Source: Candidatus Saccharimonadota bacterium
GTDB taxonomy: Bacteria > Patescibacteriota > Gracilibacteria > Absconditabacterales > Absconditicoccaceae
Direction: 5' to 3'
NCBI GenBank assembly: GCA_965231145.1
Contig: OZ246420.1
Span: 660,001-692,000, forward strand
DNA: 32,000 bases
The notes under the pieces are model-generated. The model did not search any database and was not told the DNA's origin. It saw only the letters and a program-made list of their open reading frames with translations. Positions 1 to 32,000 of the stretch are shown here, one piece after another; the stretch's first letter is position 1, and every line of letters begins with the position of its first letter. Made by a program: the position numbers and the translations under genes.

Positions 1-144
1 TTTCCACTTCCCGATCAGCACCCCCAACTTTTCAAAAAGTAATGGATCAGTAATGATCCACTTACCGTACATATTGATGAGTACGGTAGAATGACCTGCC
101 AGCGCGAAACTTATATGATTATCATTCCAATTATATTTATGCAT
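1..144 (-). CDS. MBL-fold metallo-hydrolase, N-terminal fragment (gene runs off the left edge)
   Basis: ATG at 144..142. Translation is MHKYNWNDNHISFALAGHSTVLINMYGKWIITDPLLFEKLGVLIGKWK. The GHSTVLI..G..IITDP block resembles the N-terminus of NAPE-PLD-like MBL hydrolases. Only 48 codons are visible. Confidence 0.45.
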   Translation of the reverse strand, partial: MHKYNWNDNHISFALAGHSTVLINMYGKWIITDPLLFEKLGVLIGKWK

Positions 145-270
145 GCATTTGCTCGTGTAATAAATTATGTAATATAATAAGACACCTTTAGTGGATATTA
201 ATTTGGTATCTTATTGCTATATAAAATTTTACATAAAAAAAAATAACCTTCAGGTTACTTTGTTTTCAAT

Positions 271-342
271 CGGTCCCACGGGGAATTGAACCCCGATTGA
301 CGGATTGAAAATCCGCTGTCCTAACCATTAGACGATGAGACC
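271..342 (-). tRNA. tRNA-Glu(UUC)
   Basis: Cloverleaf on the minus strand. Acceptor GGTCTCA/TGGGACC plus G73, anticodon loop TTTTCAA, T-loop GGTTCAATTCC. No encoded CCA. Confidence 0.9.
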
Positions 343-343
343 A

Positions 344-420
344 TGGCGGAATCGACGGGGCTCGAACCCGCGACCTCCCGCGTGACAGGCGGGCGTTCTA
401 GCCAGCTGAACTACGACTCC
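344..420 (-). tRNA. tRNA-Asp(GUC)
   Basis: Acceptor GGAGTCG/CGATTCC, anticodon loop CTGTCAC, T-loop GGTTCGAGCC. CCA is encoded. Confidence 0.9.
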
Positions 421-461
421 ACAAAGGCTAATTATCTGTATATCTTGCATTTTTAGTAGAA

Positions 462-536
462 TGGAGCCGGTTGCTGGACTTGAACCTGCGACCCACTGCT
501 TACAAGGCAGTTGCTCTACCACTGAGCTAAACCGGC
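462..536 (-). tRNA. tRNA-Thr(UGU)
   Basis: Acceptor GCCGGTT/AACCGGC, anticodon loop CTTGTAA, CCA encoded. One mismatch in the T stem. Confidence 0.85.
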
Positions 537-543
537 ATAATAA

Positions 544-620
544 TGGTGGACGATACTGGACTTGAACCAGTAACCCCCTGCTTGTAAGGCAGATGCTCTC
601 GCCAATTGAGCTAATCGTCC
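544..620 (-). tRNA. tRNA-Val(UAC)
   Basis: Acceptor GGACGAT/ATCGTCC, anticodon loop CTTACAA, T arm ACTGG-TTCAAGT-CCAGT. CCA is encoded. Confidence 0.9.
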
Positions 621-633
621 ATCAAGAGCAATA

Positions 634-900
634 TTACTTGCTCGAAGATTTATTAATCATTTTTGTCAGTCTTGATTTTTTTCTTGCTGCATTGTTCTTG
701 TGAACTATATTATGCTTAGCAGCCTTATCAATAAGCTTGTATGCAGAAGTCAAAAGAGCTTGCTTGTCTCCTTCACCCTTTACTGCTGCTTTCTTGAGCG
801 ACTTGATAGCGTTCTTCATAGCAGTCTTGTGCTGGAGATTTACTTCTCTCAGTTTCTTTGATCTTCTGTCGGCCTTCTTAGCAGCCTGTTTAATTGGCAT
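634..900 (-). CDS. rpsT: 30S ribosomal protein S20
   Basis: 88 aa, basic. MPIKQAAKKADRRSKK...HKNNAARKKSRLTKMINK matches the S20 pattern (KSAxKRxxxxxxR...HKNxAARxKSxL). TAA stop, no internal TGA. Confidence 0.9.
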   Translation of the reverse strand: MPIKQAAKKADRRSKKLREVNLQHKTAMKNAIKSLKKAAVKGEGDKQALLTSAYKLIDKAAKHNIVHKNNAARKKSRLTKMINKSSSK

Positions 901-967
901 TTCAATATAATTAATAATAATAAATGTTCTCTATAATTGCTAATGCTTCATGGGTAATTTATTTCTC

Positions 968-1039
968 CTCCGGGGGTCGGGTTCGAACCGACGGCCAATT
1001 GGTTAACAGCCAACTGCTCTACCGCTGAGCTACCCCGGA
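968..1039 (-). tRNA. tRNA-Asn(GUU)
   Basis: Acceptor TCCGGGG/CCCCGGA plus G73, anticodon loop CTGTTAA, T-loop GGTTCGAACC. Confidence 0.9.
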
Positions 1040-1125
1040 ATAACCGAGCAAAACGTAAGGGAATTTATATATATCTACTTATGCATTTCAAGGTTTTATT
1101 TTGCATAAACGATATAGTTGTAGTC

Positions 1126-1206
1126 TACCAGGAACAGGACTTGAACCTGCACGCACGAAGCACTGCGTTCTAAGCGCAGCATGTCTACCAGTTCCATCAT
1201 CCTGGC
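1126..1206 (-). tRNA. tRNA-Leu(UAG)
   Basis: Class II tRNA with a long variable arm. Anticodon stem-loop CTGCG-CTTAGAA-CGCAG. G1-U72 wobble, A73. Confidence 0.85.
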
Positions 1207-1218
1207 ATGGATGTAATT

Positions 1219-1291
1219 CTCGGGGACTAGGGGTCGAACCTAGGACCTACAGATTCAGAGTCTGTCGCTCTACCAACTAAGCTATCCCCGA
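1219..1291 (-). tRNA. tRNA-Gln(CUG)
   Basis: Acceptor TCGGGGA/TCCCCGA with U1-A72 and G73 (Gln identity set). Anticodon stem-loop ACAGA-CTCTGAA-TCTGT. Confidence 0.8.
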
Positions 1292-1345
1292 ATAAACTTA
1301 ATTATATAATGTATGGTTAATGACCTCTCTTCATACTATTTTTAT

Positions 1346-1420
<75 letters not shown>

Positions 1421-1433
1421 TCTACATTGTTAT

Positions 1434-1461
1434 GATTTTGAATTTTGCTCTTTGCATTTTA
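1434..1461. repeat. Degenerate heptamer array (4 units)
   Basis: gattttg aattttg ctctttg catttta, between two tRNA genes. Confidence 0.6.
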
Positions 1462-1475
1462 AATTATTGAGCTCC

Positions 1476-1546
1476 CTGGGGAACTAGGATTCGAACCTAG
1501 ATAGACGGAGTCAAAGTCCGGAGTCCTACCATTAGACGATTCCCCA
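1476..1546 (-). tRNA. tRNA-Gln(UUG)
   Basis: Acceptor TGGGGAA/TTCCCCA plus G73. The body resembles the E. coli tRNA-Gln (TGGGG.ATCG.C.A..GGTA.GGC). Anticodon loop CTTTGAC. Confidence 0.85.
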
Positions 1547-1548
1547 AT

Positions 1549-1639: not shown

Positions 1640-2044
1640 TTACATAAATTTCTGTAATATGATCTCATGTTTTTTTCCATCGGTAAAGCACTCATCCTTT
1701 ACACCTGCGATGCAACACAGTATCTGATCAGGATCCGTATCGATAAGTTGTACCGATATTTTTCCGATATCTATATCTTCCATACCCTGCTGCACTCTTG
1801 CTGCACAGGTGAAACATGCTCATGCCTGACATGAGACGGGTATCTCTACACCGGCATCCTCACCGTTTTCTACGATACTTCCTTTATCTTTTGCAGGAAA
1901 ATAGGAGATCACATCTCATTGATCATCTACTATTTTTATCATTACATTGCTTTCTGGTTCTTCAGGCAAAACTCCGTCTTGCGAAGGAACCAATGGGTCA
2001 TCTCCCATAGGTGGCTGTATATCTGTCATGCAGCCATTATACAT
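1640..2044 (-). CDS. 2Fe-2S (plant-type) ferredoxin
   Basis: Absent from the standard ORF track because of 2 in-frame TGA codons. With TGA=Gly it gives 134 aa containing VSCQAGACFTCAARV (C-x4-C-x2-C) and a later CC. The Gly of the cluster motif is the TGA at 1820..1822. TAA stop at 1640..1642. Confidence 0.8.
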
Positions 2045-2110
2045 ATTATCACGCACTTTTCAACAGACAAGCCTTCTACATAGAAACGCCCTACAATTGA
2101 ATTACATATT

Positions 2111-2139: not shown

Positions 2140-2151
2140 TACAATTCCGAT

Positions 2152-3438
2152 TTATTTAATCATTTTTACTATTTCGACTTTTGCTCTTTCTAACTGATTG
2201 TCTGTCTTGTTGTTCTGATAGCCCGTGACATCAAACGGTACATCTATATCAGGTATAAGTCCCGTACCATTCACATTTTCATCTTTTGGCGTATACCACT
2301 TTCCGATAGTATATTTAATAGCGGAACCGGAACCAAATTCAGTAATAGTCTGGATAGATCCTTTTCCATATGTCTTTATTCCTATGATCTTTGCTCCCTG
2401 TATTTCCTGCAGCGCAGCTGCAATAATTTCACCAGCCGACGCAGTCAAGCTATCCACAAGAACTACGGTAGGCGTTGTGATAAACTCTGCAAATCCATCT
2501 GAATAATACACTTCATTGTATCCCGTGTCACGATATTTCGTTGTCGTCACGATCTGCCCTTTTGCAAGGAAATGCGATGCAACCTTTACTCCGATATCAA
2601 GAAACCCTCCGCCATTTCCTCTCAGATCAAGAATGAGTCAACTAATTCACTGTTGCTGCAGTTCTGTTACCACCTTCTTCATAGCATTTTCTGTCTGCTG
2701 TCCGATGATCGAGATATTTATGTAACCGATCTTTTTGTTTGCGACGGTAAAGACATTGCTCGTCACCGATGGGATGACAACCTTCTTTCTCACGATCTTC
2801 AACGTCAATACTCTTTTTGCCGGGTCTGTTTCTGACGGACGAATAACTGTTAGTTCGACCGTGGTATCTTTTGGCCCACGGATCTTCGATACAGCAACAT
2901 CGGTAGTCATATCGATTGTCTTTTCACCATTGATCTCAGCGATAAGATCAAGCGGACGAAGTCCGGCTTCAAATGATGGCGTTCCCTTATAAACTTCCTG
3001 CACCTCTATCGCATCATTTTTCTTGAGGACCGCTGCACCGATACCTTCAAAGTCCTGCTCACCTTTAAGTTCTTCAGTAAAATTGGTATTTTGTTCAACA
3101 TCCAAAAATGTCGTATAGGGATCGTTGAGAGAAGCTACCATGCCTTTCAATGCCCATTCGAGCATCTCGCCTGTCGATATTTTTTCCTGATCGTAATACT
3201 GATTTTTCAACAGTGAATATATTTTTTCAAACTGAGTGTAATCTAAAATTCACTCTCCTGCGGTAGAAGTTTCAGAGCCGTTGCTCCAATTATTTCGCCA
3301 GTTCTGGAGCGTCACCGTCGCAGTTTCCGGCAGCATAGCTGCCGGGCGGACCATTCCGCTGGCATATACCACAACCATAGATGCTGCTCATATAATAATT
3401 CCCAAGATTCATACTCATCGATAGTGTTTCTTTTCCAT
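2152..3438 (-). CDS. ctpA: S41 family C-terminal processing peptidase with N-terminal membrane anchor
   Basis: Track fragments 2152..2550 and 2647..3210, plus an upstream TM segment, join in one frame through at least 6 TGA codons (428 aa). Motif (TGA)LILDLRGNGGG. N-terminus MEKKHY.GVGILGIIIGAASMVVV. Confidence 0.85.
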
Positions 3439-4408: not shown

Positions 4409-5032
4409 TTATTTTCTGATGGCTCCTATGAAGCTTTCAAGGGTCACTTCTCCTTTGATAGATCATTTCTGATAGAGAACATGTGAAACGACCTTCAGTA
4501 ACTTTGTCGTATCAAGCTTTACGCCCGACTGATAGACTGGTTCAAAGTGTATGTATCTTGCAAAAAATGATGGAGTTCATGCGTCGTGCATCAGCACACC
4601 GCCGTTGTAAAGACCTCATGTATAATTGAGCAATCTATTACCACTCCATGTGTCCATGAAAGTAGCACCAGTAGTCGTTGCAGCAATAAAGATCTTATGT
4701 GCCTTACTCATCGCAACGCGAAAACGAGCTCATTCAGTAAATGAACCTCCACAGACTTCCCCATTGTACAGCATACCGTTTTCTAAGGCAGCGATAGCGT
4801 CGGGCTTCAGAAATGCACATTGCCGATCGACTCCTCTTTCAAGATTGGTATCACGTATATTGAAAATCAAATCAATTCCCTCCTTCGCAAGCGACTGAGC
4901 CTGCGTTCTTACCTTCATCGTATCGATGATAGAAATATTTGTCGTAATCACTCTTATGACGGCTAAAATACCGACAGCAAAAACCATCAAGGCAATCAAT
5001 ACTTCGAGTAACGTCATTCAACGTTTGAACAT
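4409..5032 (-). CDS. type IV pilin-like protein
   Basis: Leader MFKR(TGA)MTLLEVLIALMVFAVGIL. The cleavage-site Gly at -1 is the TGA at 5018..5020. Four further in-frame TGA codons extend track ORF 4730..5017 to a TAA at 4409 (207 aa). Confidence 0.8.
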
Positions 5033-6120: not shown

Positions 6121-6678
6121 TTAACTCGTAACTGTTTTTAAGAACGTTTCTATCTTCGAGTGGAGCTCTTCCATCGTCCCATCATTGGTGATGATATAGT
6201 CAGCTCTTTCCAAACATCATTGCAAATTAATCACAGCAGGATCATCACTATGCATTTCCTTTTCTTCGTCCTCCACAAACTTCTCAAAGGTCACGTTGTC
6301 AGTACTACTTCATCTTTCTACAATTCTATGATATCTTATCTCTCTGGGAGCATCTATGCCCAAGAGAACTATATCCTTATTTTTACGAAGCGTTTCTATC
6401 TCACCCAATGTGCGAATAGACTCAATCACAGCAGACTTATCTTGTTTTTTTGCTTTTTCATAAAGTGTATGCAGGATATAATCTCCTCCATATTCTCTTC
6501 TCATCTTTTGAGCTACTTCATACATATTTTCTCTTGTATGAGGTTTTTCCTCTTTATCTAATTGCTCGATAATAAGAGATCTTGCTGAAAGATGCACAAA
6601 TCATCTTGTATGCACAAGATAGTTCACCACCTCTCACTTTCCCGCACCGATCGTGCCCGTGATACAAATGATTGACAT
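6121..6678 (-). CDS. P-loop NMP-kinase-like protein (dephospho-CoA kinase / dNMP kinase-like)
   Basis: Walker A ITGTIGAGK(TGA), with the TGA at 6634..6636. Four TGA codons join the frame into 185 aa. Also carries ESIRT.GE..L and the RIVER(TGA)SSTD block typical of this small kinase family. Confidence 0.6.
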
Positions 6679-6779
6679 GCTTCACATAGTATAATTATGG
6701 TGCTCAGATACAACAGAAATTTAGAGCAATATCCCCCCACTATAAAATTTTAAATCTCGCAAGAGATTTCACCTTGTTA

Positions 6780-7844
6780 TTACTCTTCTGGATTATCTGA
6801 TCTCAATCCTCCCTCTTGTTGTATAACTGTGCTCAAGAAATTATACTTCTCTCTCATGCTCTCCGATGTGATATATCTCGCTTCATTATCTTCTACCTCC
6901 TCAATATAGTCAGCTGCTTCTGCGAAAAGAGTAGAAAAGACATACTCTTCGTTCGTTTCATTTTCATCTATATCACCAGATCGCTCATCATACCTTGCTT
7001 CAATATTGCCTCTACAATAGAAAGCGAGTTCACATATTTTTTGCCACAGCCAGTAAGAATATGCATTTAAGGCTCCTAATCTATATTCTGGCATCAGATT
7101 GTCTTTGAGCCAATGTTCATATGTTTCAGACATATTTACTTCAACATCATCGATAATCTCGATCGCTTTTTTTAGTTCTGCTAGCGTGGTAGACTTCCAG
7201 AGCATAAGAGCTGCAAGCGTGTGAGCTTCCCATAGGGGGGTCTCGCTATCATCTACTAGCTGCATCAGGAAACTATCCTGATCTTCTTCATCAATTGGCG
7301 CACGAGAATAAACTAGTTGTTCTAACAACAATGGTGTGATATCTTGATGTTCGAGCACAAAATCCCTAAATGCCTCTGCAGTAGGAAATGCCCTTGTATA
7401 AGACTGTAAGACATATCTGTCTCATATTTCATATCCTACCGTTTCGAAATCATATTCTTCCTTACTTCTGCGCCATTTCTTCCCCTTCTTTACATATGAA
7501 CGACGCATGTTCTTATCTTTCATATCATGCACTATATTTTCTTCCATTTTTCTCATAAAATAGTCAGATCAAAGAAATAATGCCGCTAACTCCTTTTCTG
7601 TTTGCTGAGTTGCACGATGGCGAGACAAGATATTTTTTATTTCTTTAACTAATGGAGCGTGTAAAAGGGACTCTGCCTCATTAAAGCGTATAGGATGAGC
7701 ATTGAACACCAATGCACATGCTTCCTTGGTAAAGAAATTGACGTTATCGAGGCCTTTTTTCTCTATATCAGGAAACGAACCATAACTGGCTGGCAGCAAC
7801 TGTTCTTTCTCCTGCTTTGATTTCATATCTCCTCTTTTTCTCAT
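6780..7844 (-). CDS. hypothetical protein (354 aa, acidic C-terminal half)
   Basis: Track ORFs 7569..7844 and 6780..7358 lie in the same frame and are joined through the TGA codons at 7569..7571 and 7422..7424. No domain recognised. Confidence 0.55.
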
Positions 7845-7926
7845 ATGTCACTGTGTAATTAACCATTGACAAATAGCCTTTGACGACTATTATATTGCCA
7901 TCTGTTTACATTGCAATATCAATTAT

Positions 7927-8439
7927 ATGCTCGAAAAAGAACTTAAGATACTCAATATAGAACCTTTGAAACTAATACCACAACTTGAGGCACTTGGTGC
8001 TCGCAAGGTATTTGCTGGGGTGATCGCAGATCAGTATTATGATTTCCCAGAAAATGCCCTCAAGGAAAGAGGTTATTCTTTGAGAATAAGAACAATAGAT
8101 GGGACAACACATCAACTCTGTTTTAAAGAGAAGGTAAAAGATAAGAAGTTCAAAATAAGAAAGGAATACGAGATCGATCTCGTATCTCGCGCGCAGGGCG
8201 AGTATTTTATAAAAGGATTTGGTTTGTTTCCATGTTTTTTTAAGGAAAAAATGAGACTGAGTTATGAGCTTGACGAGATAAAATTTGATATTGATTGGTA
8301 TGATGGTATGAAACCAATGCTTGAGATAGAAGCGCCGAAGAAGAAAAATATCGCAAAGTGGATCAAGAAACTTGGACTCGAGCAACATGAAACATCGAAG
8401 AAAGGAGCAAGAAAACTCTTTACGCAGTTAGCGTCATAA
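7927..8439 (+). CDS. CYTH-domain protein (class IV adenylate cyclase / triphosphate tunnel metalloenzyme family)
   Basis: 170 aa. Opens with E.K; also LRIR...K.K...R.EYE...K.R..Y.LD....D.D...G...LEIE, the alternating charged beta-strand pattern of CYTH. Confidence 0.55.
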   Translation: MLEKELKILNIEPLKLIPQLEALGARKVFAGVIADQYYDFPENALKERGYSLRIRTIDGTTHQLCFKEKVKDKKFKIRKEYEIDLVSRAQGEYFIKGFGLFPCFFKEKMRLSYELDEIKFDIDWYDGMKPMLEIEAPKKKNIAKWIKKLGLEQHETSKKGARKLFTQLAS

Positions 8440-8445: not shown

Positions 8446-9597
8446 ATGAATAAAGCTTCGCTATCCGCAGATCATAATAGTATCAATAATCAATTATCTG
8501 CAGACACTCAGATTCAACATGCAATTGCATGCATTTTCAGTTCTGATAAAGCCCGCAATGAGGCTTTTTTCAAAAATAACGTATTGAAACTTCCGGAAGC
8601 GAAAGTTATTTTTTTAGAAAATGATTATGACAGACTTATTCCTTCTTTTGTCTGGGATAGTCATAGTCATCACAATGCAAGCGCTGGATATATTGAAAAA
8701 GATGGACTTTGGTGATTTATCGATCAAGATGGAAATGAGATAACCCCACCAAGATATACAGAGCGTCCTTTTTATCACATCACTGCAGATGTGCAAGACG
8801 CCGCTACGGGAAAATATGGTACTGTAGATATTAAGGGACAGACATACAATGAGTGTAAATATGAGTACATTACGAATAGTGACTATAATGTCGCTAAGTT
8901 AGATGGTAAGCGAGGTATTGTCGGTGCACATGATAAAGAGCTACTACCTTTTATCTACGATGATATTTACATAACCCAAGCACACGAAGAACATAAGGAT
9001 GAATTAGCAATTGCTCTCGTGAGAGAAGGAAATAATATCTATTGTATTGATGCGATAACGAAACAACCCATAGCAGTTCCTGAAAAGCGAAAGACGCATG
9101 AAAGGCAGTTTAAGTGAGCTGACAAGAAGTATGGCTTCATCAGTAAGCAAGGATATATTATACCTGCTGAGTTTGATGAACTTTATACATCTGCTAAAGA
9201 GAACAAATATCTTGTCTATCAAAACGATCTACGAAAAAGACTCACGTTAGATGCTATGGGAAATATGCATCTGGATATACTAGATGATGCTATGCAAGCG
9301 AGCTGTCATGAGCGTTATCATCATAAGCAAGAAAGCACAAGTAGTATCCTAGACGAGAAGAATGATTCCACAATAGAATGGTCTATGCCACAAGACCACG
9401 CCGCTGAACTGGAAAATTATAGATGAATAAAAACCGATGATAAGCGAAGCATTGTGAATGAAGGAACAAATGAAATAATATTGCCTGCAAAATTTGATGA
9501 GATCCATCTGCATTATGGCTCTCGCAAAGCATGGTGATGGATAAAACAATGGAATGCTCTTGTAGAAGTTTCATTACCCAAAAAAGCCATGCCATAG
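8446..9597 (+). CDS. WG-repeat protein
   Basis: Four in-frame TGA codons join 8446..8715, 8791..9117 and downstream sequence into 383 aa ending at TAG 9595..9597. Repeats: KDGLW(TGA)FIDQDGNEITPPRY, GK(CGA)GIVGAHDKELLPFIYDDI, KKYGFISKQGYIIPAEFDEL, DK(CGA)SIVNEGTNEIILPAKFDEI. Confidence 0.8.
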
Positions 9598-9903: not shown

Positions 9904-9938
9904 AATTTTGCTCTTTGATCTCTGCTCTTTGAATTAAT
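9904..9938. repeat. Degenerate heptamer array (5 units)
   Basis: aattttg ctctttg atctctg ctctttg aattaat. Its first 14 nt are identical to 1441..1454. Confidence 0.65.
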
Positions 9939-10822
9939 TAGAAATCCTTGAGCTTCACATGTGGTACACGTGCAAGCTCTTCTTTGACTTCAAGAAGTTT
10001 CTTTTGTACTTTTTCCACTGTGTTGATTTCTTTATGATGGTGCTTATCGATAAACTTAATCGTTTTCTCAAATTTGTCATGGCTCTTCATTCTACCGAAA
10101 TAGTAGACACCAAGACAGTATTTGCTACAACCTGAAGCAGCTTTAATCTTCATCTTCTTCATGAGCTTTGTACTATATCCATTTGCTGTAGAAGATTTAC
10201 TTTCAACAATAGCCACATTACTAAGTTTTATGGTGCGAGCTGAAGGATCTCTGAGATCGTTGAGTTCTACATCGAAGTCGATCGTCAATCTTTCGTCGTT
10301 CGTCTTAGAACAAAGCGTAATACGCTTACATTTTGTCTTAATAGATGGCATGATCTCTTCCTTAGCAAAAGGAAGCCCCATAGACTGACACAAAGACGTA
10401 TAAAATCTCTTGGCGTCTTTGTTCATTACACCGTGCCCCTCTACTCCACATGGATAACGGAACTTACGAATCACTTTTCCTTCTTTTTGCTTCATTTCAA
10501 AGTATGCAAGATCTCCGCTATCAACATAATGTCTCGTTCTTATCTTAATTCTATTTTCTTCTCCCTGCTCATGTTGCTTATAGAAAAGATAATCTTTCGT
10601 ATCCATATAGATGCTATCGTACGTGAAAATATTAACATCTTTGATCGTCAATACATAGAACTTATCCTGAAGCGCAGAAAGAATCTTATCGAGCTGTGTG
10701 AGGTCAATAAGGTATTTTGTATCAATACGCTCCAAAAAACTCATAGAAGCATTGAGCTGATCAAGAGAGATAGTTGTATACTCCTGAAGAGCCTGTGCAA
10801 AATGTTTCATTTCCTTATTCAT
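9938..10822 (-). CDS. VTC-domain (polyphosphate polymerase-like, CYTH-related) protein
   Basis: Start taken at MNKEMKH (ATG 10822), inside the longer track ORF. ERIDTKYLI, IRTRHY and YFEMKQK strands fit the VTC/triphosphate-tunnel pattern. 294 aa. Confidence 0.6.
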   Translation of the reverse strand: MNKEMKHFAQALQEYTTISLDQLNASMSFLERIDTKYLIDLTQLDKILSALQDKFYVLTIKDVNIFTYDSIYMDTKDYLFYKQHEQGEENRIKIRTRHYVDSGDLAYFEMKQKEGKVIRKFRYPCGVEGHGVMNKDAKRFYTSLCQSMGLPFAKEEIMPSIKTKCKRITLCSKTNDERLTIDFDVELNDLRDPSARTIKLSNVAIVESKSSTANGYSTKLMKKMKIKAASGCSKYCLGVYYFGRMKSHDKFEKTIKFIDKHHHKEINTVEKVQKKLLEVKEELARVPHVKLKDF

Positions 10823-19362: not shown

Positions 19363-19397
19363 AATTTAGCATTTCGAATTTATAATTTAGAATTATT
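19363..19397. repeat. Degenerate heptamer array (5 units)
   Basis: aatttag catttcg aatttat aatttag aattatt, directly 3' of sufB. Confidence 0.6.
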
Positions 19398-20791
19398 TAT
19401 CAGACCGATCCTTCCATCTCCATCTCCACTAATCTATTCAGTTCTGCTGCATACTCCAGTGGCAACTTCTTCACAATAGGCGAAATGAATCAGTTCACAA
19501 TCATCGCCATGGCTTTTTGTTCATCGAGACCACGAGCCATCATGTAGAAGAGTTGGATTTCATCAACTCTTCCAGCACTTGCTTCATGTGCAACTGTCGC
19601 GTCATCTGTTCATACATGGATATGCGGGATTGTTGTACTGACTGACTTATCATCGAGTAGTAATGCATCACACTCGGTCGCGTTCACTGCTCACTCTGCT
19701 GTAGCCTTGATATCCACGATACCGCGATAGGTAGAAATACCTCCGTCTTTACTGATAGATTTTGAAATAATCGTCGAAGACGTGTGTTTACCCAGGTGAA
19801 TAATCTTACTACCGGTATCCTGATTTTGTCCTTCGTTCGCAACCGCAACGCCAATATGATCAGCCTTTGAGTAATCTCATTTGAGTATCGAACACGGATA
19901 GAGCATGGTCGTACATGAACCAAGATTTCCCCCGATCCACTCCATATATCCATGAGTTTCTACAAGTGAACGCTTGGTATTCAAATTATACGTATTGAGC
20001 GACCAGTTCTCGACCGATGAGTAACGCATATGACTGTTCTTGCCTACAAAGATCTCCACACAACCTGCATGCAGCGACTTGCTATCGAACTTTGGCGCGC
20101 TACATCCTTCGATGTAATCGCCTGTAGCATCATCATCGATAATAATAAGCGTATGCTCAAACTGTCCGCCACCATAGGTGTTCATACGGAAGTATGCTTG
20201 GAGCGGTTCTGTCACTTTCACGCCCTTTGGCACGTAGATGAATGTTCCACCAGACCAGACGGCTCCGTGAAGTGCCGCAAATTTATGGTCCTTACTCGGA
20301 ACCAGTTTCATAAAATACTTCTTCACAAGCTCCGGATGCGTGAGCAATGCTTTCGACATATCCTCAAAGATTACTCCTTTCTCTGCCCATTTCTCTTTAA
20401 TATTATGATAGACTACCTCAGCATCGTACTGCCCTCCTGCTCCGGCAAGATATTTCTTTTCCGCTTCAGGTATCCCGAGTCTTTCAAATTTTTCCTTAAT
20501 CTTCGGATCAATCTCATCCCAGTTTTTCGTATACCCCTGAAAACCTTTTTCCGGGCGTGCATAGTAGACGATCTCATCAAGATTCAATCCTGACAGATCC
20601 GGTCCCCGGCTCGGCATCGACATCTCATGGAATATCTTCAGCGATGCCAATCTATGTTCCAGCATCCACTCTGGTTCTCCGAGATCTGCAGAAATTGCCC
20701 TTACATTCTCCTCAGAAAGTCCTGTGAGATGAATCGCATAGGGTATCGTATCGTGTGAATCTATAGCTGATTTGAGTTCGTTTTCGGTCAT
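19397..20791 (-). CDS. sufB: Fe-S cluster assembly protein SufB
   Basis: 464 aa, colinear with Bacillus and E. coli SufB. Five TGA codons, four at family Gly positions (CSILK-G, AE-G-A, MIVN-G-F, C-terminal EMEGSV-G). The last TGA is followed directly by TAA (19397..19399). Confidence 0.95.
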
Positions 20792-20803: not shown

Positions 20804-21646
20804 CTAAAACTTATCCTGTCTTTCATTTTCATTAAGCGTCTTATTATTATCATCATACCGCTCGTTGTATCCATTCGAATTCCTTCAAAGAATAATATTT
20901 GATGCTCAGCTTGGAGACTTGAATGTATAGTTTTGAGTAAACTCAAATGATTGATCATCTATCATTTTAATAACTCACAAATCAAATAGTTTTGTTTGCT
21001 GATTTTGCACATAAGGAATAGAAGCTTTAGGAATATCTTTTCTTCACTTAGATCCAGCAAGAACTACTACTCATTCTGCAGAATATATTCATTTTCCCGA
21101 TGCTGACGGTCAAGTGCAATGATATATTTTTAGCTGCTTCGTATCAACATCCGGCGTCTTGAGAATAGGATATCCTACGCTTGAAATAAGTAAATCTATG
21201 TCTTCTATAAAATCATTTAACACCGATTCTTTATGCAAAGATAGTTTTTTATAAGTAGGTTCTGTTTTATTCATGAGCTGATATCTTTTTGCTTCTTTTG
21301 CCTTAAGTATAGTTTTATATTCTAGATAAGTCACATCTCCAAGATCTAGTGTATTATTATCATATACAAATCATATAGCCACATCTCGATAATCCTTCTT
21401 CATAACATGATCTTTCCACCTTTTAGCAAGATTATCTGTTTGTCCAATGTATACAATTTCGTCAGCATTTTCATTAGATCCAAACAAAAAGTATAATCCG
21501 GTATGCGATGCTCATTCTACTTCAGCAAACTCAGACAATTTTTTTCTTGGCACGACAAAACACTTAATAGATTTTCCTGGCATATCCAGTATCTTTATTC
21601 AGGAATATGTTCCATCAATGAGAAATGTGATCAGTGTTTTTGCCAT
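20804..21646 (-). CDS. GIY-YIG nuclease family protein with DUF4357-like C-terminal domain
   Basis: 280 aa after reading at least 12 in-frame TGA codons. GLYFLFG....EIVYIGQTDNLAKRW.DH (GIY-YIG). C-terminal GS..R......SPSGASNIILGRNSNGY.E.Y...NKTL matches my recollection of DUF4357. Confidence 0.7.
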
Positions 21647-22855: not shown

Positions 22856-23176
22856 TTACTCCTGTCTTCTTCGACCAAATTTTTTCATGTCAACAGTATC
22901 ATTTATCACAGGAATTTTTTCTTTTTCAAGCAGCATTTTATGTCTTAGTCCCCTTTCTCCAAGTTTCAGTGTCGGTAAATATCATTCTTTATTGATAACA
23001 CGCCACCATGGATAACGCACCTGTTCTTCTGCATTCATGCCACTTAAAATCTTTCAAACCATCCGGCCAGATGTTTTGATGCCATAGTCGACATCTAAAA
23101 GCTCCGCAACATGACCATAGGTCGTCACACGGCCATATGGTATAGATGTCATGATTTCCATGATCTCTTGTTTCAT
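22856..23176 (-). CDS. MGMT-family DNA-binding protein, alkyltransferase-like (no active-site Cys)
   Basis: Not in the track (2 TGA codons). 106 aa: IPYGRVTTYGHVA......MV-G-KIL......YPWWRVINKE-G. PWWRV replaces the PCHRV active site. Confidence 0.65.
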
Positions 23177-23205: not shown

Positions 23206-23261
23206 CTAGCATCTAGCAAGTAGCATGCTATATGCCAATTGCTATTTGCTACCTGCTGATT
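23206..23261. repeat. Degenerate heptamer array (8 units)
   Basis: ctagcat ctagcaa gtagcat gctatat gccaatt gctattt gctacct gctgatt. It overlaps the last codons of uvrC. Confidence 0.7.
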
Positions 23262-25272
23262 TGGGTTTCGGTTTTTTCGTTGTCCGCTCACTGCTCATCT
23301 GTTTCTTTCTATATGCATTTGCAAATCTATGAGCTTCATCGCGAAGCGATGTCAAAATTCTATCTGCATCATCGTAACAGAGCTCTTTTTCTACTATGCG
23401 AAATGAGTCATCGAACATATATATCTTCTCTTTCGCTCACTTTGTCTTTCCTCTCCTCTCTCTCGCTTCTCACTTTCCAAGTGATACGAAATGCACCTGC
23501 TCATATATCTGACGAAATGCAGCAGAGCTTTCATATAACTCTTTCACAATACCTAACTGTCCCTTTCCTCCGTCGATCACAAACACATCGGGCAAAAACT
23601 CTGGATGTTCAACATTACTATCGGATGATTCTTCTGTATTTGATTTTGAATTCTGAACTTTGAATTTTGCATTGCCGACAAGGCCGAATCTTCTGGTGAG
23701 TACTTCTGTGAGTGACGCATAGTCGTCTGATTGCAAAAATTCTCAATTCTCTGTGCTCAATTCTCAATCCTTATTTAATTTAGAATCTAGAATTTCGAAT
23801 TTCGAATTATTTTTAGTTCATTTAATCTTATATCTTCTATAGCCCTTTTTATTGGGAAGCCCCTCTCTCATGGCGCTTAGTCCTCCACTCACCCATCATC
23901 CTGACAAGTGCGAGATATCTAGACACTCCACATTGTACGGAAACTTTTTAAACTCATATCTCGTGTGCAACGTCTTCAAGAGCTCATTCATCAGATTGTC
24001 TTTCTCAAATGCACTCGTGAGCACATACGCATCGATACTCCTTTCGAGTAATGCTATGATCTCCTGGAGCGGTTCGTTTAATATACGCTTATCCGTTTCG
24101 ATACCAATCATCGCACCATCCTGTTTTTGTTCATCACATGTCACTATATCCGGGCAAGGCGTCAGCTTGCCATCCTGCCAGTAGTTCCAACTCAGTTCAC
24201 CGATCTCACGATTGAACGCACTCATGAGTGAGGAAACATCACCATCATTTTGATGTTGTTTATAACGAATAATATCAATAATTTTTCCCTCATACAGCTT
24301 AACCACACAGCACACTCGCCGTTCACCGATCTCTTTCACTTCCACGATATTTCACGTCACTGGACGTGACAGAACAACGTTCTGTTTTTCTGTTACCAAG
24401 TCGATCTTGCTATACATATCTCTTATCTGCGCAGCGTATTCAAAGCGCTGTTTTTGCACAGCATCTTCCAAGCGTTCAAGGATATAATCTTTTAATAGTT
24501 TGATTCTTCCTCCAAAAAAGTCTGTCAGTAATGCAACTATTCTCTTATATTGCACCTTCGATGCTGGATAATCATATTTTTCTATAAATCATATCCTCTT
24601 TGCTTCCTGCAAATACTTATTCATCTCACCGGACGCAATATATTGCGTCCCTACATCATCGGCATTTTTTATTTTTCATTCTTTATTTTTTATTTTTAAT
24701 GCATTAATATCTATCATCTTCAATTTCTCATTATTTATTTTAAGTTTATTGTAGACGCACCAACCTTCACAGAGACCAAAGAAATAGTCAGAGCAGAGTT
24801 TTCCTTCGTGAAACTGCACTTTTTTGCAACCTCTGTATTGAAATAGTTGGCGAAAAAAGTGGAGCATCTCGCGAACATGTCTCGTGTTACTCTTCGGTCA
24901 AATATATGTCGATCCGTCGTTGTCGCGAAACCTTGTCAGAAATATTTGCGGATATTCTTCATTGGTAATCTTGATATATGCATAACTGTTATCTGCTTTG
25001 AGCAGGCTGTTATACGGAGGCGTATGTTTCTTAATAAGATTGTCTTCCAGAAAAAGTGCTTCGCTTTCTGTCGTAACGATATGAAATTCAACTTTGATAG
25101 CATTGAGCAGCATATCCTGTTTCCAGACCGATCACTTTTGAAAATACTGAGCAAGTCTATTTTTTAAGTTCTTCGCTTTTCCGATATACAAAATCTTCCC
25201 ATGCTCATCAGAAAAGATATAGACGCCGGGCTTTGTAGGTATATTCGTAAGATCGGTCAGACGAAGTGCCAT
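23242..25272 (-). CDS. uvrC: excinuclease ABC subunit C, with low-complexity inserts and no C-terminal (HhH)2 domain
   Basis: At least eight in-frame TGA codons, one frame, 676 aa. GIY-YIG ([26 protein letters not shown]), UVR-like (FEYAAQIRD), [31 protein letters not shown]. Ends about 25 aa after RDEAHRFA. Confidence 0.9.
23642..23676. repeat. Degenerate heptamer array inside uvrC (5 units)
   Basis: gattttg aattctg aactttg aattttg cattgcc. Same word family as 1434..1461 and 9904..9938. Confidence 0.6.
23742..23811. repeat. Degenerate heptamer array inside uvrC (10 units)
   Basis: ctcaatt ctctgtg ctcaatt ctcaatc cttattt aatttag aatctag aatttcg aatttcg aattatt. Confidence 0.7.
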
Positions 25273-25860: not shown

Positions 25861-26760
25861 ATGACTATCCGAAATTTACTCGCAGACCAGAAATATCAGC
25901 AAAAGAAAGTGATTGAAAAGATACTTTGTCACCATACATGACTGACGAAAGAAAGTCTGATCATGAATTATGATACCGAGCTCGACGCGGAGACTCTCGC
26001 AAAAATACAACATGATTATGATGAGTATGCGCTGAAGGATAAACCTTTAGAATATATTTTCTGATACGTAGAGTTTTTCCAGAGAAAGTTCAAAATTGAT
26101 GGTCGTTCGCTTATCCCCCGTCCAGAGACAGAATATATGATTGAAGCGGTCAATGAGGAAGTTGCAGCGCAAAAAATAGTGAATAACGCCAACAAGAAAG
26201 TAATGCTCGACGTAGGAACGGGTACAGGTGTATTGGGGATGTCTGTACTCATGGAAAATCCGACTTTTTTTGATAACGCCTATTTGACTGAATACTATGA
26301 AGACACGCTTTCCCTGGCAAAAGAAAATTTTGCACAGCATAAGTCTTCTTTGGGAGATCATACAAAGATAGCTCTTGTGCATTCAAACTTGATACAGTTT
26401 ATGGGAGAGCAAAATATTGTAACAAGTGATGATAAGCCTCAGAGTATTGATTATACGCTAGTAGCGAACCTGCCATATATACCTGACGAGGTCTTTGATA
26501 CACAAACAGAAGACAACGTGAGAAAATGGGAGCCACGCCCTGCATTTGTATGAGGTCATGATGGACTCGATTTTTATAGAGAGATGTTTGCTCAGATATT
26601 TGCGTATCAAAAAACATCGCCACAAAGCTGGACGATGTTCTTAGAGATGATGACCTGGCAGGTCGATATCTTACGCAAAGAGTTTGGCGACAAGATCGAG
26701 TTTGAAGAGATCAAAACTTTCCACTTCAATATTAGGATCGTGAAAGGGACTTTGAAATAA
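25861..26760 (+). CDS. prmC: peptide chain release factor N5-glutamine methyltransferase (HemK/PrmC)
   Basis: Three TGA codons join it into 299 aa. PLEYIF-G-YVEF, LIPRPETE, MLDVGTGTG, VANLPYI (an NPPY variant), EPRPAFV-G-GHDGLDFY. Confidence 0.85.
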
Positions 26761-26776: not shown

Positions 26777-29761
26777 CTAAATCTTTGGAAACACATCTAT
26801 AACAAAGTACCTTCTGAGTGCTGCATTAAAAGCATTATAATCCAGTTTTCCGTCTTTCACAACTTTGTCATATGGTATCTGGATATTTTTATACATATCC
26901 TGGTTCACACCGTCGTTATCAAGAGTCAGCTGGATGTATTTCGTTTCAACCTTTGTTGCTGGATCTACTCTTCTTACGATTGCTGCATCTTCGATCTCCA
27001 TACGGTTACTAGATGTGCCAAAATAGTATTCTGAGTTAATAAAAAATGTTCTTAATTTATCAATTTTTGCTTTTAACTTTGCATCTTTCCTATCTTCTTC
27101 TGTAAAGATTCTATTTATTATAATGCTCTTATTGATAAAGTTAGCATCTATAAGCTGCTGATCTGCGTTCTCTTCTGCTGTTTTTTTAGCGAGCTCTGGA
27201 TTTGCTGGTGCTGGCTTTCCTTTGGCTGTATCTGTCTTAGGGGCTGGAACCTTTGGCTTAACGCCTGGAACTGCATTATTCTTTTTTGCTTCTTCAGCCT
27301 TTTTCTTATCAGCTTCTGCCTTCACAGGCGCCATAGCTTTTCTAAGATATGAAAGCATATCATCACTATCTTGTCTGACATCTATAACATAAGAAGAATT
27401 TCCATCATTGCGTTTTATTATCCCATTTGCTTGGTCAAGAAGTATACTTTCTTCTTTCATAGGATATCCTTCTTTTTTCAGCTGAGCCGTAACGCGGGTT
27501 ACTTTATCTACAGTAATTTTATTCATATACTCATTGAGTCTTCAAGCTGTCCAGACTGAATTCTGACTTAGCTTTACTTGATACGGCAGAAGTGCTTCAA
27601 AAGTCTTCTGTGGTATAAATTTCTCTGTAACATCCGCAACATTTTTATTGAGATAGTTCAATAGCGCTTGCTTATTTTTATTATTCTTTTCTCCTTTCAG
27701 TGTTGGAAAGTTAGTATAGTCTGTTACTAAATCCTTAGTCATCCCAAGACTACCCGCTCCTCTTTGCTCTATTTCACCTGTAGAAGAAAGCTCAAAACGC
27801 GTTTCTGTTTTGTCTTCTGGTCTATAGAGATCTTTTATTCTATTGATAAGATTTGCTACTCTTATAGCCTCTCCCTGGTCGGCAAAAGTTATGTTGAGAC
27901 CATCAACTTTCTTTTCTTTCATATCAAGCGCTGTTTCATTTCCATAAGAGGAAAGCTTCACCTTACTCGGATCATTATAATAAAGTATATTCATCTTGAA
28001 AGTTTTCGTATCAATCTTTGTCCCTGCAAATGCCTTATTGATATGATAACCCATGTATTTAGACAACTGCTTATCTATGTCTAAGACAAGGTTTGTCAAT
28101 TTTCCATCGCTCCAAGCGAAACGAACGACGCCAGAAACAACATCGTTATTGAGCGTTGTGACTAATGCGTTTTTATATTTTGCCAATTTTTCATAGTTTT
28201 CCTGAAATTTCTTAGCACCTTCAGGAGTCCCAGTAGGTTCAGCAAATGACATGGTCGTAATTTCTGCTCTCGCGCTTTCAAAAGCTTTCTCTCTTAACAG
28301 AGCGAATCTAGAATTCTCCTTTGGCATATCTGATTGTTCTACATTTATAAGTGTTTTTAACACCTCTTTTTCTATCAGAATACACTTATCAACTACATTA
28401 TACTTTGGATCATTGATATATGACTCAAAAAGGTCAGCAACTTTGTCATACTTTTTATCAAGCGCTGTTACCGGAACATCCGCTTTTGTTTCTGGTGTAG
28501 GCGCGGGAATTGGCGCTGTTTCAGTTGATTTAGAAGTAGTTACTTCTTTCTTTTTACTTGCTTTTGGCTTTGTAGCAAAATTATCAGGATTTGTTCCATC
28601 ATCAGCCCATTCATAATCAGGATCTACGTTAGGCACATTATTGATAATCTTTACATGATGTTTCGCAGGATCTTTCATAAGCTCCTCTTTTGTAACAACT
28701 GGTATCGTAGGAGTTACTTCCTTTGCTTTTTTTGTCGCTTCTTTTTTAGGTGTTGCTGGTTTTTCTGTCTTAGCTGCAGTAGTTTTCTTTACTTCTTTCT
28801 TTGGCTCCTGTTTTGTATCTGTATCTGCCTCCGTATCAGTATCTGTTTCCATAAGCTTCGTCGCATAGTTATCTGTTGCTTTTTCGTCTACCCAGTCGTA
28901 TCCATCTTCAGGTTGTATCTTAAGATGATTAACGTCAGAATCAAAGTCTGCTAGTGCTTCTTCACGCGTTATTTCTGTCTCATTTTCTGCTTCTTCTCCA
29001 ATTTTCTTTACTGCAACATTATCTGGATTTGAAGCATCAACAAACTCATACCCATCTTGTGGCACTAAACGTAAGTGATTTTTCTCCATAGACTCAACAC
29101 TAGCGAGCGCCTCTTCAGCAGAAAGTGTTTTTACTTCATCACTCTCAGCAGCATTCTCTGTTTTATTATTAGTATCTGATTCTGTGGTATTTGTTGCTTT
29201 TACCGCGACAATATTATTTTTATCCCAACTTGTATCATCAAGTGCAGAAATAATCTTCGTAAGTGTCTCTTGTCCTGCCCATCCATCAACAGCGATCTGA
29301 TCATCTGCATGAGCAGTATTCCATGCATTTTGAAATTCTTGTATTCTCTTATTTGTATCTTTACTACCATAGATACCATCTATACCTTGCTCAAATTTAC
29401 ATCCAAGCTTAGCCAATGCAAGCTGCATATTAAATACTAATCCAGCACCCATAGCACTATACACATCCATAAATGCTATATGGTCATCTGGGTTTGCACT
29501 GTTTTTTGCAGCTTCAAACTTACCGACAGCTGACTGCAAAACCATCTTCACGTGTTCTACCGTGAGATCTTTTTCCAGCATAGCTTTCAGAGTCTCGCCC
29601 GAAAGATTGTTCATTACCTCTTTTTTAAGGTCCTGAAGCTCTCCTTTCGTTTCATAGATCTCCTTATAGCTATCCTTGATTTTATTTTCGAGCCAATTGA
29701 TCTCTCCGATTTTCTTCGAGATCTGATTGTCACCGATTTCGTTTTTGATGAGTTCTGCCAT
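26777..29761 (-). CDS. large PG-binding-domain protein with novel ~45-aa repeats (994 aa)
   Basis: Track ORFs 27542..29761 and 26777..27526 share one frame and are joined by the TGA at 27542..27544. Helical N-terminal domain, PG_binding_1-like segment (MQLALAKLG....GIDGIYG..T...IQEFQ......DGWAGQETL), 3 HL-x-P-x-GY-(E/D)-W-x-D...DN-x-A-x-K repeats, then a long unrecognised C-terminal part. An internal restart at 27526 cannot be excluded. Confidence 0.6.
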
Positions 29762-29785
29762 GGTAGTACTCTAAAGATGTATAAA
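29222..29785 (-). repeat. Paralogous block 1 (leader plus N-terminal ~180 codons)
   Basis: About 80% nucleotide identity by eye to 30890..31147 over the first ~230 nt of the CDS plus ~25 nt of 5' leader (..TATACATCT....ACTACCATG). Protein-level similarity continues through the PG-binding segment. Confidence 0.7.
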
Positions 29786-29800
29786 TTTTACATAAACGTA

Positions 29801-31123
29801 TTATGAAATAGTTTTTCTTCTTTGAAGTGACGTTGCATAATTATCTTCACTACTCTTATCTAACCAATCATATCCTCTCTCTGGCTTGATATCTACTGGG
29901 TAATTTCCTTCCTTCAGATATCTCAATACATCTGCATGACTTATCATAGGAGCATCTTCAACCATAGTTCCTGTTTTTCTCACAGCAAGATTATCAGGAT
30001 AGTTCCCAGCCCACTCGTAACCCTCCTGAGGAACAAAACGTAAGTGATTTCTTTCCATCGTTTCTCTATCTTTTATGGCATCATTATAACTCAACGTCAT
30101 GCCTTCAAGTGGTTCTTCTGGTCCATACACATTTTGTGCAGGCATTGGCTTCTCTTCTACTACTGGGAAATCACCTTCTACTGCTTTGATTTTACTCTTT
30201 CCATCAGCAGATGTTATGGTTCCACTATTATTCTCATCTTCTACATCCGTATTATTTTCTGGCTGAGCTCATCCTTCGCGCAACTTCGTTGCGTAATTTT
30301 CACTATCCTGCCCATCTGCCCATTCGTAATTTTTTACAGGCTTAAGACCAAGATGGTATTTATCCATATTTGGATCTTTAAAGAAATCTTCATAACTCAT
30401 AAAAGGCGTATTCATAAGTCTCTTTCCTTTTACCTTCATAGCAATATTTGCCGGATCTGTAGGATCCACAAACTCATACCCATCTTGTGGCATAAACTCG
30501 AGATGATTATCTATCATCGCTTGTCTATCTTTAATAGCCTCTTGTGCTGTGACTTTAGGCACTTCTGTTACGACATTCTCTCCTTCTTGTCTTTCTACTT
30601 TTCTCCCACTCATGCGAGATACATCCCACTTTGGATCATCAAGTGCAGCTACAATTCTGACGAGAGTAGCTTCTACGTCTGATGTGTCGATAATAGTATC
30701 TTCAGGATGAGTAGTGTTCCATACTTTCTGAAATTCTTGTACTCTTTTTCCTGTATCTGATGTACCATACATACCATCGATACCCTTATCAAAGTGACCT
30801 CCAAGCTTAGCAAGAGCGAGCTGCATGTTGAATGTAATACCCGCATCTAGATTACTATAGGTAGCTTGCTTTATAGATGGATCATCAATTCCTGCCTTAA
30901 GGACATTTTTTACATGATCAACCGTAAGCTCTTTTTCAAGAAGCTCTTTCAACGTCTTACCCGAAAGATTATTCTTTATTTCCTTTTGCAGATCCTGCAA
31001 TTCTCCTTTCGTCTCATAGATTTCCTTATAACTATCTTTAATTTTACTTTCGAGTGAATTGATATCTCCGATTTTTGTAGAGATCGTGTTATCACCGATT
31101 TCATTTTTGATAAGTTCAGTCAT
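29801..31123 (-). CDS. paralogous PG-binding-domain protein with 4 copies of the same repeat (440 aa)
   Basis: Track ORFs 30269..31123 and 29801..30145 are joined in frame by the TGA at 30269..30271. The first ~170 aa are paralogous to the 994-aa protein. TAA stop at 29801. Confidence 0.6.
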
Positions 31124-31147
31124 GGTAGTGATATAAGATGTATAAAG
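30623..31147 (-). repeat. Paralogous block 2 (leader plus N-terminal ~167 codons)
   Basis: Counterpart of 29222..29785. Confidence 0.7.
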
Positions 31148-31150
31148 TGG

Positions 31151-31894
31151 TTATGCGTTTGCTCAGGGATAGAGTTCAAACTTTCTCTGAAATGCTTTCT
31201 GTCTTTTTTCTAAGTTATTTGCTACGGCATCGACTCCATCTTGCAAAGATGCATATTTCCTTGTACTTCCGTCGTCGGTATTACCGACATTTCCAGGATT
31301 ATTGGTTCGTACGGCTTTACCCTTCGTGGCCATCGAGCTATCAAGTGCAATAATGGCAGCAACAGCATATGGATCCACATTATGTTTCTTTGCGGCGGTT
31401 TCTATCATCTGAGTATTAAGTGGCGTGCCTTTAAATCATTTGATGAACTTATTGAGTCATTTTTGTTTCGCAGTTTCATGGATTCATTTTACTTTTGTTC
31501 CATATTTGTCTCATGTAGAGTACGCTCATACAAAGAACTTCTTTCACTGGAAGTGTCATGAATAAAGAACTTGCAGATAGTCAGAGCTGTTTGCTATTCC
31601 CTGTGGATAGAGATACTCATACTTATAGGGTCATCTGTAAGCAGGCTGCGGTGGTGTTTCTATTTTTGGAGCAGCTTTTGCTGCCTGCTTCTCCGGCCCG
31701 CCAGATCAAAAAAATGATTTGAATGCGTTTCCCAGTATATTTGTAAAGTTGGTCACAGTTGCTTTTATCTGATCAATAAATTGCTGCAGTGAATTAAGCT
31801 CACCACGGCTGCCTTTGAGTACTTTGTCTATTTCCTGTTGTTTCTGTTCTTCTTTTGAAAGAGGCTGTTTCTCAGGAGAGTTTTTTGGAGCCAT
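31151..31894 (-). CDS. hypothetical protein with C-terminal lysozyme/lytic-transglycosylase-like segment
   Basis: Eleven in-frame TGA codons join 31706..31894 and 31163..31408 into 247 aa. The C-terminal block HNVDPYAVAAIIALDS....G......NNPGNVG......Y.S...G resembles SLT-like murein hydrolases, but with DS where those have ES. This is recalled from memory of the family and is weak. Confidence 0.35.
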
Positions 31895-32000
31895 ACAACA
31901 CCATGCACAAAATAAAGTATCTCCAGTATATGGGCTGTTTACCTCAGGAGCAAAAATCTTCGGGCATGTATCATTATAGAAGAGATATTATATTTGACAT

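Follow-up and report, generated by a model that had tools for sequence, protein, structure and literature searches.

Probable reading of UGA as glycine and of CGA and CGG as tryptophan in a chromosomal stretch of an uncultivated Absconditabacteria member

Which genetic code has to be applied to a stretch of DNA in which the standard code cuts many genes into pieces? This question is raised by positions 660,001 to 692,000 of contig OZ246420.1 (assembly GCA_965231145.1, Candidatus Saccharimonadota bacterium), a stretch of 32,000 nucleotides that was analysed at its full length and is referred to as the window in the following. A preliminary description of this DNA had proposed that UGA is a sense codon for glycine, that translation ends exclusively at UAA and UAG, and that NCBI translation table 25 applies. 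Based on comparisons with homologous sequences, we consider it very probable that the window belongs to the chromosome of an uncultivated member of the Absconditabacteria (SR1), in which UGA codes for glycine, CGA and CGG both code for tryptophan, and only UAA and UAG terminate translation. Both reassignments have already been published, and the finding is thus known biology.

Stop codons and the meaning of UGA

With TAA and TAG as the only stops, the window (GC content 38.5%) resolved into 34 non-overlapping genes covering 85% of its length, 30 of which are located on the minus strand; in the following, genes lie on this strand unless the plus strand is indicated. One open reading frame (ORF; 16286..16744) was judged spurious, and a membrane protein encoded on the plus strand (16307..16759) was preferred in its place. 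All 34 genes end in either TAA (28 genes) or TAG (6 genes), and the C-termini of TypA, SufB and Tag are the same as those of their E. coli homologues. When TGA was dropped from the standard stops, the longest ORFs increased from 742, 348 and 343 amino acids to 997, 682 and 635 amino acids; dropping TAA resulted in a smaller gain, and dropping TAG left the ORF lengths nearly unchanged. From this we conclude that translation in the window terminates solely at UAA and UAG, as had been proposed.

In total, 83 in-frame TGA codons are spread over 22 of the 34 genes. The remaining 12 genes, among them the gene of ribosomal protein bS20, do not contain any, and the preliminary statement that UGA fragments almost every gene was therefore worded too strongly. 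The gene models of that description could be validated. The identities and coordinates given for TypA (11046..12848, 600 amino acids), SufB (19397..20791), UvrC (23242..25272), a CtpA-type S41 peptidase (2152..3438) and a CaCA exchanger of the YrbG/NCX_Mj type (12990..13919) are correct, and Pfam matches span the TGA positions of the window genes with full profile coverage. The same applies to the identities of a plant-type [2Fe-2S] ferredoxin (1640..2056), a SnoaL/NTF2-like protein (17453..17809) and an alkyltransferase-like (ATL) protein (22856..23176), for which the standard code leaves only pieces of 31-67 amino acids. All seven TGA coordinates that had been named indeed correspond to TGA on the respective strand.

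If the in-frame TGAs were real stops, they would have to be explained by pseudogenes, assembly errors, selenocysteine or programmed readthrough. Nothing beyond the bare presence of these codons speaks for such an explanation, to which we assign next to no probability: the frames of the 22 genes are intact with full-length domain matches across the TGAs, the same positions are occupied by TGA or by a GGN codon in independent assemblies, no selenocysteine tRNA was found, and tRNA was the sole Rfam family in the window.

For the comparison with homologues from standard-code organisms, TGA was masked as X. Among 26 sites anchored in this way, the top residue was Gly at 16 sites and Trp at none, which confirms the proposed reading of UGA as glycine and not as tryptophan. 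In TypA, 47 of 54 standard-code loci have Gly at residue 28 (12765..12767), and at residue 377 (11718..11720) 34 of them have Ser and 20 have Gly. In comparison with E. coli SufB, residues 305 (19877..19879) and 434 (19490..19492) align to Gly, residue 367 to Asn and residue 394 to Arg. Both TGA sites of the ferredoxin align to Gly, the first of them (1820..1822) being the Gly of the cluster motif SC(Q/R)A-G-xCxxC, which is present as SCxAGxC in four out of four PDB ferredoxins; the second is located at 1916..1918. Likewise, residues 68 (26062..26064) and 231 (26551..26553) of a PrmC/HemK-like release-factor methyltransferase (25861..26760, plus strand) are both Gly in T. maritima HemK. Out of the six TGAs of the CtpA-type peptidase, residue 267 (2638..2640) corresponds to the Gly preceding LV(I/L)D(V/L)RGN in B. 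subtilis CtpB, and residue 264 (2647..2649) aligns to Glu. The CaCA exchanger was compared with NCX_Mj, where residues 71 (13707..13709) and 199 (13323..13325) match the Gly of the two alpha-repeat motifs, and residues 103 and 114 match Lys and Phe, respectively. The ATL protein carries TGA at 23054..23056 and 22982..22984; its TGA residues 53 and 77 are Gly in two structures, S. pombe Atl1 and Vibrio ATL.

An AAA_17/18 nucleotide kinase (6121..6687) contains five TGAs, two of which are located in Gly columns, namely the P-loop site (6634..6636; Gly in 77 of 81 standard-code homologues) and the next site (6601..6603; 67 of 81). The third site is Gly in 36 of the 81 homologues, and the fourth is mostly Ala (31), followed by Lys (17) and Gly (12). 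A doubt about the Walker A glycine, raised by Ser in the nearest solved structure (3lw7), was dropped since the 81 closer homologues show GAGK-G-T. In UvrC, which contains 11 TGAs, three sites fall into variable stretches and are aligned with Thr/Gln, Lys and Gln, respectively. UvrC homologues were set aside as independent anchors, as the best 120 matches appear to belong to the same clade and were translated with table 4 by the database.

Profile scores point in the same direction. The core of SufB scored 254.5 with Gly at TGA and 244.6 with Trp. The corresponding values for a WG-repeat protein (8446..9597, plus strand), in which TGA 8713..8715 represents the G of a WG motif, were 42.8 and 29.3 bits. 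For a type IV pilin-like protein (4409..5032), one of two pilin-like proteins that Pfam identified among the window genes, TGA 5018..5020 encodes the -1 Gly of the prepilin cleavage/methylation motif, and the N_methyl profile matched with 23.8 bits with Gly and not at all with Trp. SufB also ends in a TGA codon (19400..19402), which is directly followed by TAA, and two relatives show GGG-TAA and GGC-TAG at this place. Thus, every motif example of the preliminary description turned out to hold a Gly, as judged by standard-code homologues, by relatives in the case of the SufB end, and by profiles in the case of the pilin and the WG repeat.

In addition, we compared codon use between orthologues in three syntenic relatives, L004, L005 (GCA_030429145.1) and L006 (GCA_017992195.1), which share 49-91% amino-acid identity per gene with the window. 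TGA, CGA and CGG were masked in both partners, and pairs were only counted where the flanks were well conserved. TGA codons of the window were paired with TGA (25 sites), GGN (23) and other codons (3); conversely, GGN codons of the window were paired with TGA 39 times. In UvrC, the relatives show mixtures of Gly and TGA at the TGA columns of the window.

These data also bear on the reading of UGA as tryptophan according to table 4, which is used by Mycoplasmatales, Entomoplasmatales and several insect endosymbionts. Table 4 shares with the window that UGA is a sense codon and that ORFs fuse upon readthrough, and the two differ in the amino acid, which is Trp there and Gly here. A public protein database used table 4 for relatives of the window, and full-length proteins result from this. 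However, TGA and TGG were not paired at a single site in either direction among the three syntenic relatives, and the absence of Trp at the anchored sites as well as the lower Pfam scores with Trp also contradict table 4, which we regard as virtually excluded.

The database entries of the clade show what such a translation brings about. In the public protein collection, many Absconditabacteria contigs were translated with table 4, which fills Gly columns with Trp and Trp columns with Arg, and other contigs of the clade were translated with table 11, resulting in fragments of 87-95 amino acids; the database sequences therefore contain systematic errors. The table-4-translated UvrC homologues (P0001-P0120) have a Trp content of 3.3%, and their conserved Gly columns show mixtures of Gly and Trp.

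The share of TGA among the glycine codons varied strongly between the window genes (chi-square p = 8e-7). It reached 50% in the gene of a GIY-YIG/DUF4357 protein (20804..21646; ten TGAs, one CGA, one CGG, GC content 32%), which is missing from the corresponding stretch of L005 and L006, and 43% in a glucosaminidase-like gene (31151..31894; ten TGAs, CGA at 31307..31309). The share was 3% in two large paralogues (26777..29761 and 29801..31123) and 0% in 12 genes.

CGA and CGG at tryptophan positions

A first hint of a second reassignment came from the UvrC alignment, in which three out of four columns with TGG in the window were mixtures of Trp and Arg. The window contains 18 CGA and 10 CGG codons; these 28 codons are distributed over 17 of its 34 genes. 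Per 10,000 codons, this amounts to 20 CGA and 11 CGG, compared to 103 TGG, 92 TGA and 583 for all four GGN codons.

The most informative protein in this respect is the 3-methyladenine DNA glycosylase I, Tag (13949..14512), which has CGA at 14486..14488 (residue 9), CGG at 14441..14443 (residue 24) and TGA at 14504..14506. The counterparts of residues 9 and 24 in E. coli Tag are W6 and W21, respectively. Using a TGA-free stretch of Tag as the query, we examined 150 representatives clustered at 50% identity, and Trp was present in 139 of 141 representatives in the CGG column and in 82 of 101 in the CGA column; the other Arg codons of Tag are mostly located in Arg/Lys columns. Similarly, the CGG of SufB (residue 62, 20606..20608) corresponds to a Trp in E. 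coli SufB and to TGG in L005.

The codon pairs in the three syntenic relatives are in agreement with tryptophan. CGA codons of the window were paired with CGA (5 sites), TGG (3), CGG (1) and TAT (1), and CGG codons with TGG (8), CGA (3) and CGG (1). Not one of these 22 aligned sites showed AGA, AGG, CGT or CGC in the three relatives. In the reverse direction, TGG codons of the window were paired with TGG (39), CGA (16) and CGG (10), so that CGA and CGG together account for 26 out of 69 sites. For AGA, AGG, CGT and CGC, 179 of 207 sites were paired within this group; TGG, CGA and CGG did not occur as partners. The share of TGG partners thus differs clearly between CGA/CGG sites and the four other Arg codons (Fisher p = 4e-13). 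When all codons were screened, a top partner coding for a different amino acid was only observed for TGA, CGA and CGG. From this we conclude that AGA, AGG, CGU and CGC are still arginine codons in the window. Apart from UGA, CGA and CGG, nothing indicates an altered meaning for the remaining 58 sense codons.

Pfam scores increased with Trp instead of Arg at CGA and CGG in four out of five tested proteins, by 11.8 bits for Tag, 6.7 bits for the WG repeat, 3.4 bits for the SnoaL-like protein (46.5 bits with Trp, 43.1 bits with Arg) and 1.0 bit for the CaCA exchanger; ATL is the exception. In the WG-repeat protein, other repeats have W/Y at the position taken by the CGA codons at 8911..8913 (GK-W-GIV) and 9445..9447 (DK-W-SIV), and further CGA codons are found at 9088..9090 and 9232..9234. 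Its WG_beta_rep profile scored 49.5 bits with the Absconditabacteria code (UGA as Gly, CGA and CGG as Trp), 42.8 bits with table 25 and 29.3 bits with table 4. The CGG of the CaCA exchanger (13383..13385) corresponds to the W that the first repeat shows in GADW-LVDGA, with NCX_Mj having Leu at this site, and the SnoaL-like protein has its CGA at 17495..17497 and a TGA at 17657..17659. For the GIY-YIG/DUF4357 protein, the DUF4357 profile reached 40.7 bits with X at the masked codons and 59.5 bits with Gly and Trp. CGA or CGG codons also occur in the genes of the type IV pilin-like protein (CGG at 4823..4825), UvrC (CGG at 24319..24321 and 23284..23286, CGA at 24316..24318) and the PrmC/HemK-like protein (CGA at 25870..25872).

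Several points weigh against the reading of UGA as glycine and of CGA and CGG as tryptophan. All support for it is comparative, and the published reassignment of CGA and CGG is likewise computational. Ten of the 26 anchored TGA sites match Ser, Asn, Arg, Glu, Lys, Phe, Thr, Gln or Ala, every one of them in a variable column. The anticodons UCA, UCG and CCG are absent from the nine tRNAs that the window encodes. Finally, the CGG of ATL (23063..23065; residue 38 when counted from the start at 23176) falls on the position that is the Arg finger in S. pombe Atl1 and Vibrio ATL, and the ATL Pfam score decreased by 4.9 bits with Trp instead of Arg. In solved ATL proteins, this Arg finger is DNA-intercalating. 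At the same site, L004 and L005 carry TGG, L006 carries CGG, and the distant homologue P0126 has Gln. Given the TGG in L004 and L005, the ATL of the clade has Trp where the solved ATLs have Arg.

The ATL site is also the observation that favours plain table 25, in which UGA codes for glycine and everything else is standard, with CGA and CGG as Arg. The glycine part of this table is fully supported. Its arginine part, however, is opposed by the exchange of CGA and CGG with TGG and never with AGA, AGG, CGT or CGC, by the Tag columns and the SufB residue that is Trp in E. coli, and by the four proteins with higher scores for Trp, which makes plain table 25 very improbable. Of the preliminary statement that the window matches table 25, UGA as glycine and the two stops therefore remain, whereas the 28 CGA and CGG codons act as Trp and not as Arg.

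Another alternative is that CGA, CGG or both are decoded ambiguously as Arg and Trp in a lineage in transition, again with UGA as glycine. The presence of CGG at the Arg-finger position would fit this, as would the fact that CGA and CGG are still rare compared to TGG, and it has been pointed out that experiments are needed to exclude ambiguity (PMC8629427). On the other hand, CGA and CGG occur freely at conserved Trp sites and are exchanged with TGG, which would be costly if Arg were often inserted, a swap with a true Arg codon was not seen at any of the 22 aligned sites, and two relatives have TGG at the ATL site itself. We therefore consider ambiguous decoding improbable.

Placement, tRNAs and known codes

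The preliminary description had placed the window in the Gracilibacteria/Absconditabacteria, and this is supported by the best relatives of UvrC and TypA, which belong to the Absconditabacteria/SR1. Where the best UvrC homologues carry a name, it is Absconditabacteria, Gracilibacteria or SR1, with Absconditicoccaceae and Absconditabacterales among them. TypA was surveyed in 26 Patescibacteria loci (L009-L034), with placement based on best matches only. The nearest loci, L009 from a Candidatus Absconditabacteria metagenome-assembled genome (MAG) and L010, share 77% identity with the window, and in both of them TGA occupies Gly columns and CGA is located at Trp/Phe columns. The TypA search of genome contigs did not reveal any locus above 77% identity, and none of the loci L009-L034 is syntenic beyond TypA. 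An exact-protein search yielded no more than three short Logan contigs with lengths of up to 5.9 kb. Genes identical to those of the window are present in the runs ERR4405439, ERR4405440 and ERR4405441. In most of the remaining Patescibacteria loci, including more distant Gracilibacteria and Peribacteria, CGA stays at Arg columns.

In three of the 26 loci, which stem from Gracilibacteria/'Peribacteria' MAGs (L022, L023 and L031), the TypA gene has TGA at 15-25 conserved Gly positions and contains neither CGA nor CGG. This pattern is consistent with lineages that avoid both codons, with one gene per genome being too little to conclude.

The nine tRNA genes of the window form an array (270..1547) in the order Gln-UUG, Met-CAU, Gln-CUG, Leu-UAG, Asn-GUU, Val-UAC, Thr-UGU, Asp-GUC and Glu-UUC. 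The array is completely contained in the window, since tRNA-Glu is followed by a terminator-like hairpin with a T run and then by an unrelated gene. The bS20 gene (634..900; Pfam Ribosomal_S20p, 66 bits) is located inside the array, between tRNA-Asn and tRNA-Val.

Among 31 fetched loci, no tRNA(UCG) or tRNA(CCG) was found, and the sole tRNA(UCA) is encoded in L019, a more distant relative from a MAG labelled 'Candidatus Peribacteria'. This tRNA (7825..7903) has the glycine identity elements G1:C72, C2:G71, G3:C70 and U73, and is encoded directly 3' of the gene of the tyrosyl-tRNA synthetase (TyrRS) and 15 bases upstream of a tRNA-Gly(GCC), with the pair spanning 7825..7995. In the same locus, TGA codes for Gly in both TyrRS (ELG-x-NDQ) and glucose-6-phosphate isomerase (GIGGSYL-x). 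ARAGORN labels the tRNA(UCA) as tRNA-SeC.

According to the literature and this relative, UGA would be read by a tRNA-Gly with the anticodon UCA; release factor 2 would be lost according to the literature. The only related gene of the window, that of the PrmC/HemK-like protein, does not bear on this loss. CGA and CGG would be read, as the literature suggests, by a tRNA of tryptophan identity with the anticodon UCG and possibly also by one with CCG. CGU and CGC would remain with tRNA-Arg(GCG), and separate Arg tRNAs would serve AGA and AGG, again judged from the literature and the relative.

The code that fits the window has been described before. UGA as glycine was reported for SR1 and Gracilibacteria by Campbell et al. 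2013 and Rinke et al. 2013, as cited in PMC8629427, and the Absconditabacteria code with UGA as glycine and both CGA and CGG as tryptophan was derived with Codetta (Shulgina & Eddy 2021, eLife 10:e71402; PMC8629427). These authors reported consistent tRNAs, a low GC content of 0.26-0.38 and AGA as the main Arg codon in the Absconditabacteria (PMC8629427). The window shares the three codon meanings, the taxonomic group and AGA as the dominant Arg codon with this code. As in the published code, CGA outnumbers CGG and UGG is more common than either, and the CGA frequency of the window lies inside the reported range; the GC content of 0.385 compares with the reported 0.26-0.38. The tRNA evidence is that of the paper.

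A shift of an arginine codon of the CGN box to tryptophan in a low-GC lineage is also known from Anaerococcus and from a clade of uncultivated Bacilli (order RFN20), where, unlike in the window, only CGG changed, a tRNA(UCG) is reported missing and UGA is still a stop codon (PMC8629427). NCBI table 25, the Candidate Division SR1 and Gracilibacteria code, has UGA as glycine and UAA and UAG as the only stops in common with the window and differs from it in CGA and CGG, which are Arg there.

Neighbouring genes and consequences for annotation

The two tandem paralogues with a TGA share of 3% encode proteins of 994 (26777..29761) and 440 amino acids (29801..31123). The two proteins hardly differ over their N-terminal ~170 residues, which include a weak match to PG_binding_1, apart from which no Pfam family was found in either protein, and both contain repeated units of the form 'HL+hxPxDGYE(F/W)xD...DN(F/Y/V/L)A(T/V/M)K'. 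The glucosaminidase-like gene adjoins the pair, and the paralogues may represent cell-wall-associated surface proteins.

A type II toxin-antitoxin pair with an overlap of 8 bases (16763..17041 and 17034..17279) consists of a Phd/YefM-family antitoxin with one CGG and a ParE/RelE-family toxin with one CGA. The WG-repeat gene is flanked by the genes of a CYTH-domain protein (7927..8439, plus strand) and a VTC-domain protein (9938..10822), neither of which contains TGA, CGA or CGG. Both domains are tied to triphosphate/polyphosphate chemistry.

The consequences of the codon reading concern the translation of such DNA. To our knowledge, every NCBI table mistranslates the window. With table 11, 22 of the 34 genes fall into fragments. 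Table 4, evidently the choice of public pipelines for the clade, inserts Trp at 83 Gly sites, and table 25 inserts Arg at 28 Trp sites, including the two nearly family-invariant N-terminal Trp residues of Tag. The value of the finding is therefore practical, in terms of a correct annotation, and not conceptual. Beyond this, the interchange of synonymous codons among syntenic relatives is a different method from the published computational analysis, and it independently supports CGA and CGG as tryptophan codons.

Clean sites for a proteomic or biochemical test are provided by residues 9 and 24 of Tag, residue 62 of SufB and the terminal Gly-UGA of SufB before UAA. The Trp-bearing peptides at these sites would be CSWCLK and YHDEEWGVPMHDEK of Tag and the SufB peptide spanning ...MPSWGPDLSGLNLDEIVYYAR, and the C-terminus of SufB would read ...EGSVG.

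Finally, the CGG of ATL might represent a molecular fossil, that is, an ancestral, functional Arg codon that was kept throughout the code change, became a Trp codon and was later replaced by TGG in relatives. We regard this scenario as unlikely. If it were true, the change of CGA and CGG would have passed through an ambiguous intermediate and not through a complete disappearance of these codons, and a DNA-repair protein of this clade would tolerate, or even exploit, an intercalating Trp at the position of the Arg finger.

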